Virus record (IMG/VR): IMGVR_UViG_3300020576_003846
Span: 1 to 29,912 of that record
Source: a virus
Reading direction: 5' to 3' (one strand)
DNA: 29,912 nt
The notes beneath the pieces were generated by a model. It saw nothing but the letters and a program-made list of their open reading frames with translations. It did no database searches and had not been told where the DNA came from. How positions within the stretch are numbered: the first letter of the stretch is position 1; each line of letters starts with the position of its first letter. Both the position numbers and the translations under genes were made by a program. This document shows, piece after piece, positions 2,603 through 27,246 of the stretch.

Positions 2603-3949
2603 TTAAGAAGCTGCTGTAATCAGTCCAACGACAGGGCCGGCCTTGCGTGCTGAAGCCGTAGCCGATGCGTTACCTACGTCGTGAACAACGATGTCAACGC
2701 GCTGCGTTGTCTTGACGTAAACTGTATCAGAGAGGAAGCCCGCCGAATCATCGCGTTTCACTGCAATTTGTGAACGCCGCCCCATCGTTGAGGCTAGCGA
2801 CAGGTCACCAAGCAATGCGCATACCTGACTATTTGCCTCGACCTTCGGCATGGCATCCGTGAACACAACAGGAATGCCAAGAAGTTTAGCATTGCCAATA
2901 CCATTAACAAAGTCCATAGGCGTTACCCCTGAGGCAGCCATAATCAATCGCTCTGGGGCTGCTGCCCAAAACTGCCTACTCATGAACCAACGTGTATTGG
3001 CGGTATATCCTAAATTTGGCAACAAACCTTTTGCGGCTACGAAGTCTTCCATCGTTAGCTCAGAGTACGCATTGCCGCTACCGACCTTAAGACCTGCGAT
3101 ATGGGCAATCGTGTTGCTAAGTGATTTTAACCTCGTGGTAACCCCAACGATACCATCATAACTACTTGTACCATCACCAACGAAACCGGCTTCGTCAATT
3201 TTTTTAGCAGCAGCCCGCGCCATATCGCCGGCAAGGATATCGCCAATGCGGATGATTGCGTCGTCTTCTAACTCATTGGTAAACGATGCTAATGAATGAA
3301 TTTTTTTAGCAATTAATTTAATGCGATTAGTCAGGCTACCACTGTCCAAGCCCGATAACGACGAGGCTTCAGAACCCCAATAGGCCGTGGCGTTATCGGT
3401 GATGCGGATAACATCACGCGTATCCGAACCCATAGGCTCCACGCGTGTGTACTGCTCATATACGCCGTACTGCTCAATAAGGTGGATAACGTACGATGAC
3501 AGTTCATTTGGCACCAACGCGCCACCGAGTGCGTTGTCGTACTCAACGTTAAACGCTTTGGTGTTTATGTTCAAGTCGTTTAGCTTCGTCTTTGCTTTGT
3601 CGCTACCGCTCACAGCCATGCCGAAGAGGCCGAACTTATACGCGATTTCGTCAGAAGGTAAATTTTTTGCAATTACCTTAGATCCCCCTGTGGCGTATGG
3701 CATGGCCTTCACTTCAGGGGCAGGCGTTGGTAAGGTCTGCACATCGAGGGGGGGAGCAGCTTGGACGCTCTTTTTCTTTAGCTCTTCGAAGTTCTGCAAA
3801 GATTTGATTTCCGTTTTAACGGTTTCGATTTCACCCGCTAACTGTGCAGCCTGATCTGCCTGTACCGCCGTCGGTGACGGCAAAGCAAAGAGGGAATTGA
3901 GTTGAGACTCTAAATCTCTTTGCTTATCATGCATTTGTTGTATCGTCAT
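2603..3949 (-). CDS. Major capsid protein, HK97 fold family, with an N-terminal coiled-coil delta domain
   Basis: 448 aa. The N-terminal roughly 100 aa are helical (QQMHDKQRDLESQLNSL...EIETVKTEIKSLQNFEELKKK). The ALGGALVPNELSSYVIHLIEQYGVYEQYTRVEPMGSDT block is typical of the Phage_capsid (HK97) family. It lies directly downstream of a prohead protease. Confidence 0.85.
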   Translation of the reverse strand: MTIQQMHDKQRDLESQLNSLFALPSPTAVQADQAAQLAGEIETVKTEIKSLQNFEELKKKSVQAAPPLDVQTLPTPAPEVKAMPYATGGSKVIAKNLPSDEIAYKFGLFGMAVSGSDKAKTKLNDLNINTKAFNVEYDNALGGALVPNELSSYVIHLIEQYGVYEQYTRVEPMGSDTRDVIRITDNATAYWGSEASSLSGLDSGSLTNRIKLIAKKIHSLASFTNELEDDAIIRIGDILAGDMARAAAKKIDEAGFVGDGTSSYDGIVGVTTRLKSLSNTIAHIAGLKVGSGNAYSELTMEDFVAAKGLLPNLGYTANTRWFMSRQFWAAAPERLIMAASGVTPMDFVNGIGNAKLLGIPVVFTDAMPKVEANSQVCALLGDLSLASTMGRRSQIAVKRDDSAGFLSDTVYVKTTQRVDIVVHDVGNASATASARKAGPVVGLITAAS

Positions 3950-9897: not shown

Positions 9898-10449
9898 ATG
9901 AAAAACAATGAAAGCAAGTTATCCGCCGAAGATATAGAACAGGGGCTAACAAATGGAGACAAGTACATACGTAGAGCGTTTGCCAAGCGCACCGACTACA
10001 CACCCACGCCGGAGCAAATCGAACGTGGGCTAACGGACACCAGCGAGTATGTGCGCACAGCGTTTGCCGATCGCAGGGACTACACACCCACGCCGGAGCA
10101 AATCGAACGTGGGCTAACGGACACCAGCGAGTATGTGCGCATTGCTTTTGCCTATCGTGGCGACTACACGCCGACGCCGGAGCAGATCGAACGTGGGCTA
10201 ACGGATGTTGAGTGGAACGTGCGTGTAGAGTTCGCGTGGCGCAGGGACTACACGCCGACGCCGGAGCAGATCGAACGTGGGCTAACGGATGAGAATGCTG
10301 ACGTGCGCCTTGCGTTTGCGGAGCGCACCGACTACACACCCACGCCGGAGCAGATAGAGCGTGGACTAACGGATGTTGAGTGGTTCGTTCGCACAGCGTT
10401 TGCGCTACACGCAAAGCGTGATGCAGAGCAAAGGAAAGAAGATAACTAA
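9898..10449 (+). CDS. Alpha-solenoid-type repeat protein, copy A (six 28-aa HEAT/LRV-like repeats)
   Basis: After MKNNESKLSA the protein is E-x-IE-x-GLT(D/N)-xxxx-(V/I)R-x-(A/E)FA-x-R-x-DYTPTP repeated with an exact 84-bp period. The D-xxxx-VR-x-A-x-A core resembles PBS-lyase/EZ HEAT and LRV repeats. Confidence 0.8.
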   Translation: MKNNESKLSAEDIEQGLTNGDKYIRRAFAKRTDYTPTPEQIERGLTDTSEYVRTAFADRRDYTPTPEQIERGLTDTSEYVRIAFAYRGDYTPTPEQIERGLTDVEWNVRVEFAWRRDYTPTPEQIERGLTDENADVRLAFAERTDYTPTPEQIERGLTDVEWFVRTAFALHAKRDAEQRKEDN

Positions 10450-10478
10450 CTTTATTTCACAAACTACAAGAAGCAATA

Positions 10479-10919
10479 ATGAAAAACAATGAAAGCAAGT
10501 TATCCGCCGAAGATATAGAACGTGGGCTAACAAATGGAGACAAGTACATACGTAGAGCGTTTGCCAAGCGCACCGACTACACGCCGACGCCGGAGCAAAT
10601 CGAACGTGGGCTAACGGATGTTGAGTGGTTCGTTCGCACAGCGTTTGCGGAGCGCACCGACTACACGCCGACGCCGGAGCAAATCGAACGTGGGCTAACG
10701 GATGTTGAGTGGTACGTTCGCACAGCGTTTGCGGGGCGCAGGGACTTCACGCCGACGCCGGAGCAAATAGAACGTGGGCTAACGGATGTTGAGTGGTACG
10801 TGCGTGTAGAGTTCGCGTGGCGCAGGGACTACACGCTGACGCCGGAGCAGATAGAGCGTGGACTAACGGATGTTGAGTGGTTCGTTCGCACAGCGTTTGC
10901 GCTATGCGCAAAAGCGTGA
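10479..10919 (+). CDS. Alpha-solenoid-type repeat protein, copy B (five 28-aa repeats), tandem paralogue of copy A
   Basis: It has the same 5' leader and first 10 codons as copy A and the same repeat architecture, with one unit fewer. An extra A (A4 at 10910..10913 versus A3 at 10413..10415) ends the frame 9 codons earlier than in copy A. Confidence 0.8.
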   Translation: MKNNESKLSAEDIERGLTNGDKYIRRAFAKRTDYTPTPEQIERGLTDVEWFVRTAFAERTDYTPTPEQIERGLTDVEWYVRTAFAGRRDFTPTPEQIERGLTDVEWYVRVEFAWRRDYTLTPEQIERGLTDVEWFVRTAFALCAKA

Positions 10920-10977: not shown

Positions 10978-11802
10978 ATGTTACGATCATCTGAATTAGC
11001 AGCAGCCTTAGGCGTTGCCAAGTACACAACGCAGCGCGAGTTGTGGGAAAGACGGCAGGAAGGCTATGAGCCACCTGCCGACGACTTAGCCCGCCGCATG
11101 GGACGCCGTATGGAGCAGGCAGTGCTAGATGAGTACGCCGAGCGCCACGGCGTAATAATAGATACGCCGCAGGTAGCAGAGCGTGGGATTATCCGCGGTA
11201 TAGCTGATGGCGTAGACAAGCTAAATAAAGTCATAATAGAAGCTAAAACAACAACAAGCTATGCCCGCAAATCATGGGGGGATTGGCTATTGCCTGACTA
11301 CTTTTGGCAAGTGCAAAGTTACATGTATCTTTACAACATGGATAAGGCAATAGTAGCCGTGTTCGAAACAGATACAAAAACCTACATGGAGTATAGCGTT
11401 GACTTTGCGCATGGCTTTGACGAGGCCTTAGCGGCAGCGACAAAATTTTACAGTACATATTTAGCCGAGCCTAATTTACCTGCACCGCCGGATACCGTGA
11501 TGCAAAGTGAACCCGGTAAACAGTACAACGCAGATGACGATACCGCTGAAAAATGGGAGCAATACAGGTACGCTAAGGAACAAATAAAAGTTTACGAATC
11601 GCAAGCGGACGAAGCGTTGACCTACATAACCGCCGCGATGGGAGACGCTGAAACCCTTGTTGTTGCGGGTTTGGCGGTAGCCACGTACAAAAGTAGCACA
11701 GTAAAAAGGGTTGATATCGCAGCCCTGCCTGAAGACATTAAAGAAAAATACACAAAGCAAAGTGAAGTACGTACGTTTAGAATAAAGAGGGGACGCGCAT
11801 GA
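10978..11802 (+). CDS. YqaJ-type viral recombinase exonuclease (PD-(D/E)xK, lambda Exo-like role)
   Basis: SSELAAALGVAKYTTQRELWERR...RMGRRMEQAVLDEY...GIADG...IIEAKTT...YFWQVQSYMYL follows the YqaJ domain pattern. It is coupled by ATGA to the recT gene downstream. Confidence 0.8.
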   Translation: MLRSSELAAALGVAKYTTQRELWERRQEGYEPPADDLARRMGRRMEQAVLDEYAERHGVIIDTPQVAERGIIRGIADGVDKLNKVIIEAKTTTSYARKSWGDWLLPDYFWQVQSYMYLYNMDKAIVAVFETDTKTYMEYSVDFAHGFDEALAAATKFYSTYLAEPNLPAPPDTVMQSEPGKQYNADDDTAEKWEQYRYAKEQIKVYESQADEALTYITAAMGDAETLVVAGLAVATYKSSTVKRVDIAALPEDIKEKYTKQSEVRTFRIKRGRA

Positions 11803-12758
11803 CACCGCAGGAAATAATAAAGCAGCAGGCAGAGCAGCAGCGCAAACAGGTAGTAAATGCGATATTAAAGCAAATTAGTGGCGTCGTAGCAAGTGGCTAC
11901 ACGCTCGACGATTGGGCAAAAATTGCCGTTGACGTGTTTGCGACAAATCCAAAACTCGTGACGTGTAGCACCGTATCACTTATCCGCGCTTTTTCGGATG
12001 CGATGGAAGCAGGTTTGCGGCCAAACAGTAAGGAAGGTTATTGCTACATAATTCCATTCAGAGGTGAGGCAACCTTTGTCATGGGTTATTACGGACTGCT
12101 CGAGCTTGCTTACCGCACCGGTATGGTGCGTGACATACGGGTGCAACTGGTGTATGCAAATGATGAATACAGCTCGGAAACACAAAACAACGCAATAGTG
12201 ATAAACCACAAATATAACTCTATGCAACCTATCGCAGATCGTGGTAAGTTAATTGGTGGCTATGCGATATTGCGCACCGTTAATGACGGCACATACACGA
12301 CTGAACTAAGCTACGAAGAATTAGAACAACGCCGCCTAATGTCTCCCGCCGCCGAACTCGAAGTGTGGCGCAACAATCGAACTGAAATGTACAAAAAAAC
12401 ATTACTAAGGAATTTAATAAAATATGTTAGAAAACAATGGGAAGACAGAAGCCCATATACAGCGGCAGGTGGTGAATTGGCTGCTACAAAACAGGTGGAT
12501 AGTGATCCGAATCAACTCCCTACGGATGCGCCACCTTGTGAGTTACGTAGTATATCCGAAGAGCCTAACAACGGGGCTGCCGGATCTATTAGCCTACCGG
12601 TCTGGGATGTCGGTATGGATCGAAGTGAAGGCAGCGGAGGGCCGTCTGTCACCGTCGCAAAAAAACACGCAAAAAATACTAACCCATTACAGGTGGCTGG
12701 TGCTGACGGTCAGCTCGGTGGAAGAGTTGGAAGCGAAAATAAAGGAGGTGGAAAATGA
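11799..12758 (+). CDS. recT: RecT-family single-strand annealing protein with an unusually long low-complexity C-terminal tail
   Basis: NPKLVTCSTVSLIRAF..AMEAGLRPNSKEGYCYIIPFRGEATFVMGYYGLLELAYRTGMVRDI...VYANDEY...MYKKTLLRNLIKY are RecT-like blocks. The last ~110 codons overlap the VRR-NUC ORF in another frame. The stop forms an ATGA junction with the next gene. Confidence 0.8.
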   Translation: MTPQEIIKQQAEQQRKQVVNAILKQISGVVASGYTLDDWAKIAVDVFATNPKLVTCSTVSLIRAFSDAMEAGLRPNSKEGYCYIIPFRGEATFVMGYYGLLELAYRTGMVRDIRVQLVYANDEYSSETQNNAIVINHKYNSMQPIADRGKLIGGYAILRTVNDGTYTTELSYEELEQRRLMSPAAELEVWRNNRTEMYKKTLLRNLIKYVRKQWEDRSPYTAAGGELAATKQVDSDPNQLPTDAPPCELRSISEEPNNGAAGSISLPVWDVGMDRSEGSGGPSVTVAKKHAKNTNPLQVAGADGQLGGRVGSENKGGGK

Positions 12759-12771
12759 AACTGAAAGATAA
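12424..12771 (+). CDS. VRR-NUC domain nuclease (PD-(D/E)xK)
   Basis: EAHIQRQVVNWL...GLPDLLAY...VWIEVKAAEGRLSPSQK...LVLTVSSVEE matches the E...GxPD...ExK...LSxxQ layout of VRR-NUC proteins. AAGGA lies 12 nt upstream of the ATG. The ORF lies in the +1 frame inside the recT ORF. Confidence 0.75.
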   Translation: MLENNGKTEAHIQRQVVNWLLQNRWIVIRINSLRMRHLVSYVVYPKSLTTGLPDLLAYRSGMSVWIEVKAAEGRLSPSQKNTQKILTHYRWLVLTVSSVEELEAKIKEVENETER

Positions 12772-13027
12772 ACTAAAACATTATCTACAAGTTTACAGGG
12801 TGCGCAGGCTGACGCATGAATCGGCTCGCGCCCTCTACAAGGCTGCCAAGTATGGCTTGCGGATAACGTACCCGTATAAAGTTATCAAAAGCACAAGTAA
12901 AGCGGAAAACCTTATGCGGATACGCCGTAAAGAATTTACGCACATGGCGGAACTGCATGAGCAGAAGGCAGCCCTTTATCGCTCCTTAGCCGAGTTAACC
13001 ATCGACACCGACAACGAAAAAAAATAA
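12755..13027 (+). CDS. Hypothetical basic helical protein
   Basis: A 90-aa ORF with a strong AAAGGAGGTGG RBS. No motif recognised. Confidence 0.5.
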   Translation: MKLKDKLKHYLQVYRVRRLTHESARALYKAAKYGLRITYPYKVIKSTSKAENLMRIRRKEFTHMAELHEQKAALYRSLAELTIDTDNEKK

Positions 13028-13063: not shown

Positions 13064-13465
13064 ATGAGTTCAATTAGCGTAACGATGCGCGGAGTAATTG
13101 CCGATAGCACCCCAATCGAACATACCAAATACGGTTCACGAATGAAGCTAACAATATTGGTGGGTTATGGCGAAGAGCGTGAAAATTACTACCAGATAGA
13201 AGTAAAAAAGGATGCAATAGTTGCCCTCATTACCACACTGCCCATAGGTGCCGAAGTGATAGCAAATTGTAGCTTGCGCGGTATCAAGTACCAAAAGAAG
13301 AGTGACGGCAACACAGCGTATTTCACTACGCTTGAGTGCTGGAAGTTAGAGCCCGTAAACAATGCGGCAACACAAAGCGCACCTGCCGCCGCCCTGTTCG
13401 ATGGGCCAACGTCGGAAAACCCGTTTCCGCGTCCACAGGAGACGAATGAAGATATAAGTTTTTAA
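13064..13465 (+). CDS. ssb: Single-stranded DNA-binding protein-like (OB fold, acidic C-terminal tip)
   Basis: At 133 aa, the beta-rich N-terminal ~100 aa are followed by a P/A/Q-rich linker and a terminal ETNEDISF that resembles the SSB DDDIPF tip. It lies within the recombination/replication block. Confidence 0.5.
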   Translation: MSSISVTMRGVIADSTPIEHTKYGSRMKLTILVGYGEERENYYQIEVKKDAIVALITTLPIGAEVIANCSLRGIKYQKKSDGNTAYFTTLECWKLEPVNNAATQSAPAAALFDGPTSENPFPRPQETNEDISF

Positions 13466-27009: not shown

Positions 27010-27246
27010 TTACATGATTGTTGTTTTCGGTTCGTTACCAACGTACATGACAACGGTTGATTTGTTATCGTGGGTAAAAACACCCTCAACAAAACTAACA
27101 GGTGGCTTTAGCAGTTCAACCGCGCTAAGGCTTGTGACCCCTCGCGGCATAGTGTCTTTCCAGATATCCGTATCAACTAGTAGGTCAACATCACCGAGCC
27201 ACCTCTTTAATTGTTGCAGGTGATATATTGCTTCTGATAATTTCAT
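27010..27246 (-). CDS. Hypothetical protein
   Basis: A 78-aa ORF coupled by a 4-nt overlap to the upstream gene. No motif recognised. Confidence 0.4.
   Translation of the reverse strand: MKLSEAIYHLQQLKRWLGDVDLLVDTDIWKDTMPRGVTSLSAVELLKPPVSFVEGVFTHDNKSTVVMYVGNEPKTTIM

Follow-up and report, generated by a model that had tools for sequence, protein, structure and literature searches.

A phage recT reading frame continues through a nested VRR-NUC nuclease gene and probably provides RecT with an overprinted tail

Can one stretch of phage DNA encode both the end of a RecT annealase and nearly all of a nuclease? This question is raised by the virus record IMGVR_UViG_3300020576_003846, whose positions 1 to 29,912 (29,912 nucleotides, hereafter called the window) carry a recT gene that stays open through most of a VRR-NUC gene located in its +1 frame. 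A first-pass annotation had proposed that recT and a complete +1-frame VRR-NUC open reading frame (ORF) are read from the same 335 nt, and the ORF list confirms this: the shared stretch is 12424..12758, which covers 96% of the VRR-NUC gene. Three explanations had been offered, namely true overprinting that creates a novel disordered RecT tail, loss of the original recT stop followed by tolerated read-through, and a frameshift site that produces a RecT::VRR-NUC fusion. We favor true dual coding, to which we assign a probability of roughly three in four, wherein the overlap is a real and evolutionarily stable region and the native RecT tail has been replaced by an overprinted one. The first of the three explanations is the one that gains support, from the presence of the overlap in three lineages, from the apparent ancestry of the VRR-NUC frame, and from a composition bias in the RecT tail; the other two fare less well, as described below.

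The product of the nested gene can be placed in a known family. VRR-NUC enzymes belong to the PD-(D/E)xK superfamily and act as structure-specific nucleases (PMC9635880). The window protein scores 23.8 bits against Pfam PF08774, a borderline match that equals the cutoff of 23.8, and it matches PHROG 93 (5e-14) as well as PHROG 5702, a Holliday junction resolvase family (2e-10). Searches yielded 218 homologues at E<=1e-3 (best 7.6e-24), which are mostly stand-alone proteins of 100-130 amino acids (aa), and several of which carry PF08774. One homologue (P0151) is 273 aa long. In an alignment of 67 sequences, the residues E9, D54, E67, K69, and Q79 do not vary, and the catalytic motifs are complete, as had been noticed at first. 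An AlphaFold (AF2) model of the protein, with a predicted local distance difference test score (pLDDT) of 93.8, has the alpha-beta-beta-beta-alpha-beta core fold. The top Foldseek matches of this model are 4qbl, 4qbn, and 4qbo; Hjc and RecU resolvases come next, and the template modeling (TM) score to 4qbn is 0.82 when normalised by target length. Judging from these matches, the nested gene product is probably a Holliday-junction or branched-DNA resolvase, and its frame is, on the evidence of homology, the ancestral and conserved frame of the overlap.

The window protein therefore shares with stand-alone VRR-NUC proteins (4qbl, 4qbn, 4qbo; PF08774) a similar length, the E...D...ExK...Q set, and a matching fold, and nuclease activity is predicted for it. 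Unlike those proteins, it is encoded within recT and is missed by gene callers. The collection of 5.8 billion proteins that holds the contig of the window lacks this protein, and a search of it returned a single relative with 35% identity. This absence indicates that gene callers pick the long recT ORF and omit VRR-NUC.

The protein encoded by the other frame is assigned to the RecT annealase family by profile and core homology, and its annealing activity is predicted. Pfam PF03837 matches residues 39-221 with 109.8 bits (cutoff 24; 1.7e-31), PHROG 148 matches with 4e-53, and homology to LiRecT (7ub2; E 1e-8) covers query residues 73-208, ending at residue 208. Similarity to the RecT of the Microcystis phage Mae-JY24, as seen by BLASTP, ends at ...LIKYV and decays thereafter, and the start codon of VRR-NUC falls within the TAT-GTT codons of this KYV. 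The PF03837 match reaches no further than position 183 of the 198-position profile. The segment that follows K(Y/F)(L/V)P in canonical RecTs, a 'S.E(I/L).' helix at Pfam positions 184-198, is missing from the window protein. In canonical RecTs this 'P.S.E(I/L)' segment is followed by 55-145 further residues.

In a shallow AlphaFold run, the last RecT helix spans residues 194-217, and the chain beyond residue 217 has a pLDDT of ~25 and no secondary structure, in line with the earlier expectation that the RecT-frame tail is disordered. It had also been claimed that recT remains open far past its last recognizable RecT block. The 111 overlapped codons are indeed open, but the conserved RecT helix extends ~9 codons into the overlap, and K212, W214, R217, and S218 are common to all three lineages considered below. 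These first ~9 overlapped codons seem to be constrained by RecT, where they lie on a non-conserved leader of VRR-NUC, and the rest seem to be constrained by VRR-NUC. The RecT tail gave no PHROG match and no homologues outside the clade, and we view it as a novel, lineage-specific frame that is predicted to be disordered.

A trivial cause of such an arrangement would be a sequencing or assembly indel near 12400-12430 that conceals the true recT stop, a possibility that the homopolymeric A7 run just upstream brings to mind and that had been raised at the outset. The 90% cluster of the window RecT comprises 12 proteins, each from a separate assembly (Logan, NCBI, JGI); 11 of these proteins are 319 aa, and in assemblies of a second lineage, described below, RecT is 285 aa in 7/7 cases. 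These 19 independent assemblies from two lineages, to which P0002 (below) can be added, all keep the long ORF and exclude the indel. The DNA of a metagenome contig (L001) is identical to that of the window across the recT/VRR-NUC junction, and a single-base shift at the A7 run, in either direction, would cost RecT its conserved KKTLLRNLIKY helix. We therefore give an artefact next to no probability. The remaining member of the 90% cluster (P0011) has a 3-nt insertion at ~window 12642, which adds a Pro to the RecT tail (320 aa). This insertion is in frame for both genes and falls in the part of VRR-NUC that separates the E.K motif from the conserved Q.

Alignment of homologous recT-VRR-NUC loci had been suggested as a way to see where recT normally stops, and this comparison shows that recT runs past the VRR-NUC start in three lineages. 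The first relative is an NCBI RecT (P0002) that is 69% identical to the window protein and exactly 319 aa long, with no indel; its core (residues 1-208) is 81% identical and its tail (residues 209-319) 45%. The VRR-NUC frame of P0002 was assessed by constrained back-translation of the RecT tail, which gives an upper bound: the +1 frame can be open and at most 91 of its 111 codons can match the window VRR-NUC, compared to 26 +/- 4 (maximum 43) for shuffled tails. The forced nucleotide changes between the window and P0002 affect RecT position 1, which is the VRR-NUC wobble position, in 45/111 codons, and position 2 in 24/111.

The second relative was reached via the best VRR-NUC homologue and resides in IMGVR_UViG_3300038968_000024 (hereafter L002), which is syntenic with the window for exonuclease, recT, VRR-NUC, DUF3127, helicase, and primase genes. 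Its recT (2914..3771, 285 aa) shares 197 nt with its VRR-NUC gene (3575..3910), and the two frames are related as in the window, such that the tail comprises 65 open codons compared to 111 in the window. The two genomes are 41% identical in the RecT core and 47% in VRR-NUC, and third codon positions are saturated in every gene, the overlap included (0.63-0.70). BLASTP similarity of the L002 protein to canonical RecT ends at the equivalent ...SLMP. Thus, both frames are present in the window and in L002, and in P0002 the recT frame is present and the VRR-NUC frame is compatible. Because both frames are found in diverged relatives, the overlap is old and stable.

Searches for additional examples were less productive. 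A blastn search with the locus and a tblastn search with VRR-NUC gave no match among 50,697 phage records, and all matches of the window RecT in the same records have at most 38% identity. Pattern scans for close relatives gave no match in viral and genome contigs, and in metagenomes the near-identical L001 was the sole match. A DNA pattern scan of viral and genome contigs returned just canonical RecTs (L017 and L018), both of which retain the canonical C-terminal segment. The VRR-NUC genes at other loci (L006-L014) do not adjoin recT. At one of these (L010), a 340-aa ORF (1963-2985) spans the VRR-NUC gene from end to end, with the two frames related as in the window; we rejected it as probably a chance ORF, in DNA of 71% GC and with no family match.

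The omission of the window VRR-NUC by gene callers, together with the long spacing of its putative ribosome-binding site, might suggest that the VRR-NUC frame is a decaying, unexpressed relic and that the region codes for RecT alone. This is very improbable given that the catalytic residues are all intact, that the fold is predicted with high confidence, that the frame persists in L002 despite the divergence noted above, and that a VRR-NUC frame with as much as 82% identity can be accommodated by the P0002 tail. Polymorphism in the L002 lineage points the same way. The fraction of variable sites is 4.5% in the RecT core and 31% in the tail, and 15/25 tail variants involve a single change at RecT position 1 that leaves the VRR-NUC protein unaltered. 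Overall, changes at position 1 outnumber those at position 2 by 18 to 3. The pace of change in the tail is therefore close to the silent rate of VRR-NUC, and the VRR-NUC frame, as these variants and the P0002 comparison show, is under purifying selection.

If VRR-NUC is the constrained partner, the question becomes whether the recT frame within it is under selection or is simply tolerated. The latter would mean that the recT stop was lost and that ribosomes read on to the first stop available, producing a functionless and unselected extension of which only the VRR-NUC counterpart matters. The low identity of the tail relative to the core in P0002, the preponderance of VRR-NUC-silent tail variants, the saturation of VRR-NUC wobble positions within the overlap, and the lineage-dependent position of the recT stop are all features that such neutral read-through would produce. 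In contrast, the probability that the recT frame would be open over 111 codons, given the VRR-NUC protein and the codon usage of the genome, is 1.9e-4, and none of 164 control windows is open in the alternative frame. Likewise, when the minimum changes separating the window from P0002 are simulated, the recT frame stays stop-free in 1.3-1.9% of simulations.

Composition provides stronger evidence for selection on the recT frame than openness does. Wobble positions of the window VRR-NUC are G-rich and T-poor (A/C/G/T 31/20/42/10 versus 30/21.6/24.4/26.9 expected, p = 3e-5), and this skew exceeds that of every other gene in the window. The next most skewed are two repeat-protein genes at 9898-10919 (G3 1.5-1.6x and T3 0.67-0.72x expected). 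We then sampled synonymous VRR-NUC recodings that keep the recT frame stop-free. The window tail contains 5 Phe, Trp, Tyr, and Cys residues (FWYC) compared to 11.6 in these recodings (P 0.008), and its polar/small fraction is 0.745 compared to 0.619 (P<1/4000). For L002, where the wobble counts and stop-free recoding statistics were obtained with one L002 gene entered out of frame, the tail has 0 FWYC residues compared to 4.2 (P 0.008) and a polar/small fraction of 0.766 compared to 0.630 (P 3e-4); the z that ignores stops and the probability of openness were recomputed with the corrected gene, and the results match.

Control windows taken from other genes do not reach these values. The composition z is +4.05 for the window tail (maximum 1.89 among 113 controls) and +3.93 for the L002 tail (maximum 1.58 among 63 controls). 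Moreover, the effect ends where the L002 recT ends: the 45 L002 VRR-NUC codons outside recT show no bias (z 1.1). Hence two independent lineages have tails that are more polar and less aromatic than their recodings and than all controls, a pattern that neutral read-through does not explain, and we consider that explanation unlikely. Stop loss as such is probably how the overlap arose, since RecT homology ends at the VRR-NUC ATG, but the idea of an extension that is merely tolerated misfits the composition bias. It is the composition of the tail, not its sequence, that appears to be under selection, exerted through the choice of synonymous VRR-NUC codons.

The resulting tails resemble the disordered tails of canonical RecTs in composition: the polar/small fraction is 0.73-0.74 in canonical tails and 0.74-0.77 in the overprinted ones, and the FWYC fraction is 0.03-0.04 and 0-0.03, respectively. 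The overprinted tails are less acidic. In other respects as well, the window protein is similar to canonical RecTs (LiRecT 7ub2, Mae-JY24, L017, L018), which have a homologous core up to the ...KKTxLRNxxKY(V/L) helix, a YqaJ-type exonuclease partner, and a long polar tail after the core. The difference is that the 'P.S.E(I/L)...' segment and the more acidic native tail are replaced in the window by residues derived from the VRR-NUC DNA.

Several points weigh against dual coding with a selected tail. At other places in the window there are alternative-frame runs that stay open for 93-108 codons, and openness in a single genome is therefore weak evidence when taken alone, the case resting instead on the relatives and the codon-choice tests; such runs also count in favor of neutral read-through. 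The 65 open codons of L002 are not unlikely by chance (P 0.065). Within the VRR-NUC gene, avoidance of T at sites where it would risk a stop reaches only P 0.057, since VRR-NUC wobble sites are poor in T throughout. A foreign codon usage of VRR-NUC might in principle account for the composition bias; the internal control in L002 speaks against this, although it comprises just 45 codons. The tail sequence is unconserved, and its first codon position is saturated like an ordinary wobble position (0.63 versus 0.66-0.70), such that a sequence-specific function of the tail is not indicated. In addition, tail length differs between lineages (65 versus 111 codons), the VRR-NUC frame of P0002 is inferred from the protein as an upper bound, and translation of both frames is predicted from sequence. 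Finally, the 12-nt spacing between the AAGGA motif and the VRR-NUC ATG is long, and L002 shows merely a weak GGA.

This AAGGA motif had been identified earlier as the ribosome-binding site of VRR-NUC, and it is present 12 nt upstream of the start codon. The stretch from AAGGA to ATG is A/U-rich and unstructured (local fold z = -1.0), and similar Shine-Dalgarno motifs and spacings are seen at further genes of the phage. These features are compatible with separate translation of VRR-NUC by internal initiation. An alternative route to the nuclease is programmed frameshifting that fuses RecT to VRR-NUC in a fraction of the products to yield an annealase-nuclease. Both genes are on the same strand in a +1 relation, and runs of A are found at 12393-12399 and 12660-12666, two features in favor of such a mechanism. 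However, after a shift at the A7 run either of the other frames terminates within 3-11 codons, which precludes a fusion formed there, and the VRR-NUC-frame stops at 12406, 12415, and 12418 confine a +1 shift to 12421-12445, before the catalytic E9. No slippery motif is found in this interval and none is common to L002, the region has no stable RNA structure by the same local z, and the window has no Rfam match. The longer VRR-NUC homologues lack a RecT domain, and the homologues otherwise are the stand-alone proteins described above. The fusion proposed in the first-pass annotation is thus unsupported, and we judge it to be very unlikely indeed.

Dual coding suggests the following course of events. 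An ancestor of the clade would have lost the native C-terminal segment and stop of recT immediately after the ...LRNLIKYV helix, so that recT ribosomes would run on into the VRR-NUC gene, in its -1 frame. VRR-NUC would be translated separately by internal initiation at the ATG at 12424 behind AAGGA. Because recT ribosomes would cross the VRR-NUC start, expression of the nuclease may be low and tied to that of recT. Selection on the tail would act to keep it at least soluble and harmless, and it may serve as a flexible spacer or a partner-binding tail. The native C-terminus of annealases is believed to bind exonuclease and SSB (PMC11611040), and the overprinted tail might substitute for it, at least as a harmless flexible tail.

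We speculate further that the tail may be a working de novo disordered C-terminus, with the YqaJ exonuclease, the SSB-like protein, or even VRR-NUC as its contact partner. In this case, recT translation could set the nuclease-to-annealase ratio, annealing and resolving could be coupled through their shared DNA, and the lineages with 65 and 111 codons could represent stages of tail growth by stop loss. This extended proposal is tentative, and we regard it as possible though doubtful.

The kind of event considered here, whether described as overprinting or as out-of-frame remodeling, is already known, and recT/VRR-NUC would be a new example; a literature search for the recT/VRR-NUC overlap found no description of it. 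Same-strand overprinted pairs known from viruses, phages included, are comparable by description, for example lambda Rz/Rz1 and the overlapping genes of phiX174. As in such viral pairs, one stretch of DNA is read in two frames, that of an old gene and a younger one; the ancestral frame is deeply homologous while the novel one is lineage-restricted and disordered, and translation of the embedded gene starts internally, which for VRR-NUC is predicted. Unlike in those pairs, the novel frame at this locus is the C-terminal tail of an old protein rather than a stand-alone gene, and it is the embedded gene, overlapped almost entirely, that is ancestral. Viral overprinting has been reviewed (PMC8227390), and its composition has been studied (PMC6195259).

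A second point of comparison is provided by the E. coli pangenome, in which Watson, Lopez and Bapteste (2021; PMC8788219) described out-of-frame remodelled genes ('ORgenes') with alternative-frame regions reported to be short and disordered. As with the RecT tail, part of an ORgene protein is there described as stemming from another ORF that is read in its alternative frame following an out-of-frame fusion. Compared to ORgenes so described, the recT/VRR-NUC locus differs in that the donor VRR-NUC stays intact and is co-encoded in the same DNA, and in that the recT extension is found in three lineages, occurs in two lengths, and carries codon-level evidence of compositional selection.

Long out-of-frame overlaps are rare in double-stranded DNA phages and are usually hard to separate from chance ORFs. 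At this locus the relative ages of the frames are clear, three lineages and two tail lengths can be compared, and the silent sites of the old gene bear a measurable imprint of the new frame. The overlap would therefore be a clean natural example of a disordered protein tail arising from an alternative frame. There are also implications for annotation, as resolvases nested in the manner of the window VRR-NUC will be missed in phages. For recombineering, RecTs of this clade, in which an unrelated tail replaces the native C-terminal segment that in annealases is believed to bind partner proteins (PMC11611040), offer a natural test of tail requirements.

Table 1. Positions of the recT/VRR-NUC features and adjoining elements in the window
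Feature	Position	Strand	Basis or remark
recT, full ORF	11799..12758	+	319 aa; same length in P0002 and in assemblies of the window's type
RecT conserved core, ~residues 1-217	11799..12449	+	Homology to 7ub2 and Mae-JY24 RecT, AF2 helix, conserved residues
Overprinted RecT tail (predicted), ~residues 218-319	12450..12755	+	pLDDT ~25, no PHROG match, composition bias
VRR-NUC (PD-(D/E)xK) nuclease gene, 115 aa, +1 frame of recT	12424..12771	+	Pfam, PHROG, homologues, fold
YqaJ-type exonuclease gene, 5' partner of recT	10978..11802	+	Pfam PF09588 1e-9; ATGA overlap with recT at 11799
Gene 3' of VRR-NUC, 90 aa, no family match	12755..13027	+	ORF list, Pfam, PHROG; missing in L002
AAGGA, likely Shine-Dalgarno for internal initiation of VRR-NUC	12407..12411	+	12 nt before ATG 12424
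Three VRR-NUC-frame stops	12406-08, 12415-17, 12418-20	+	Read from sequence
A7 run in RecT core, codons K-K-T	12393..12399	+	Read from sequence; identical in L001
AAGGAGGT, Shine-Dalgarno of next gene	12742-12749	+	Read from sequence
ATGA junction, recT end/next gene start	12755-12758	+	ORF list and sequence

The features listed in Table 1 are tightly packed. The ATGA junction between the recT stop and the next start had been noted before and is confirmed, and the ATGA junctions listed with it (721, 1197, 9641, 11799, 21147) are all real, with more at 27243 and 27704. The 3' end of VRR-NUC overlaps the next gene by 17 nt, such that positions 12755-12758 serve at once as the last sense base and stop of recT, as VRR-NUC codons, and as the start of the next gene. 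The Shine-Dalgarno of that gene, AAGGAGGT, also encodes the final residues of both RecT and VRR-NUC. The gene at 13064 codes for an SSB-like DUF3127 protein (Pfam and PHROG).

Gene content around the overlap differs between the two genomes. L002 has two adjoining Cys-rich genes at 1640-2411 (140 and 121 aa, with many C..C repeats) and a 159-aa gene, which also lies between exonuclease and recT; all three are missing in the window, and the 90-aa gene that follows VRR-NUC in the window is missing in L002. L001 also departs from the window upstream of recT. From the recT ATG onward, it is >99.8% identical to the window, while the 3' ~115 nt of the exonuclease gene (window 11683-11798 versus L001 1-116) are just ~70-75% identical. 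This drop in identity at the exonuclease/recT ATGA indicates a mosaic (recombination) breakpoint located exactly at that junction.

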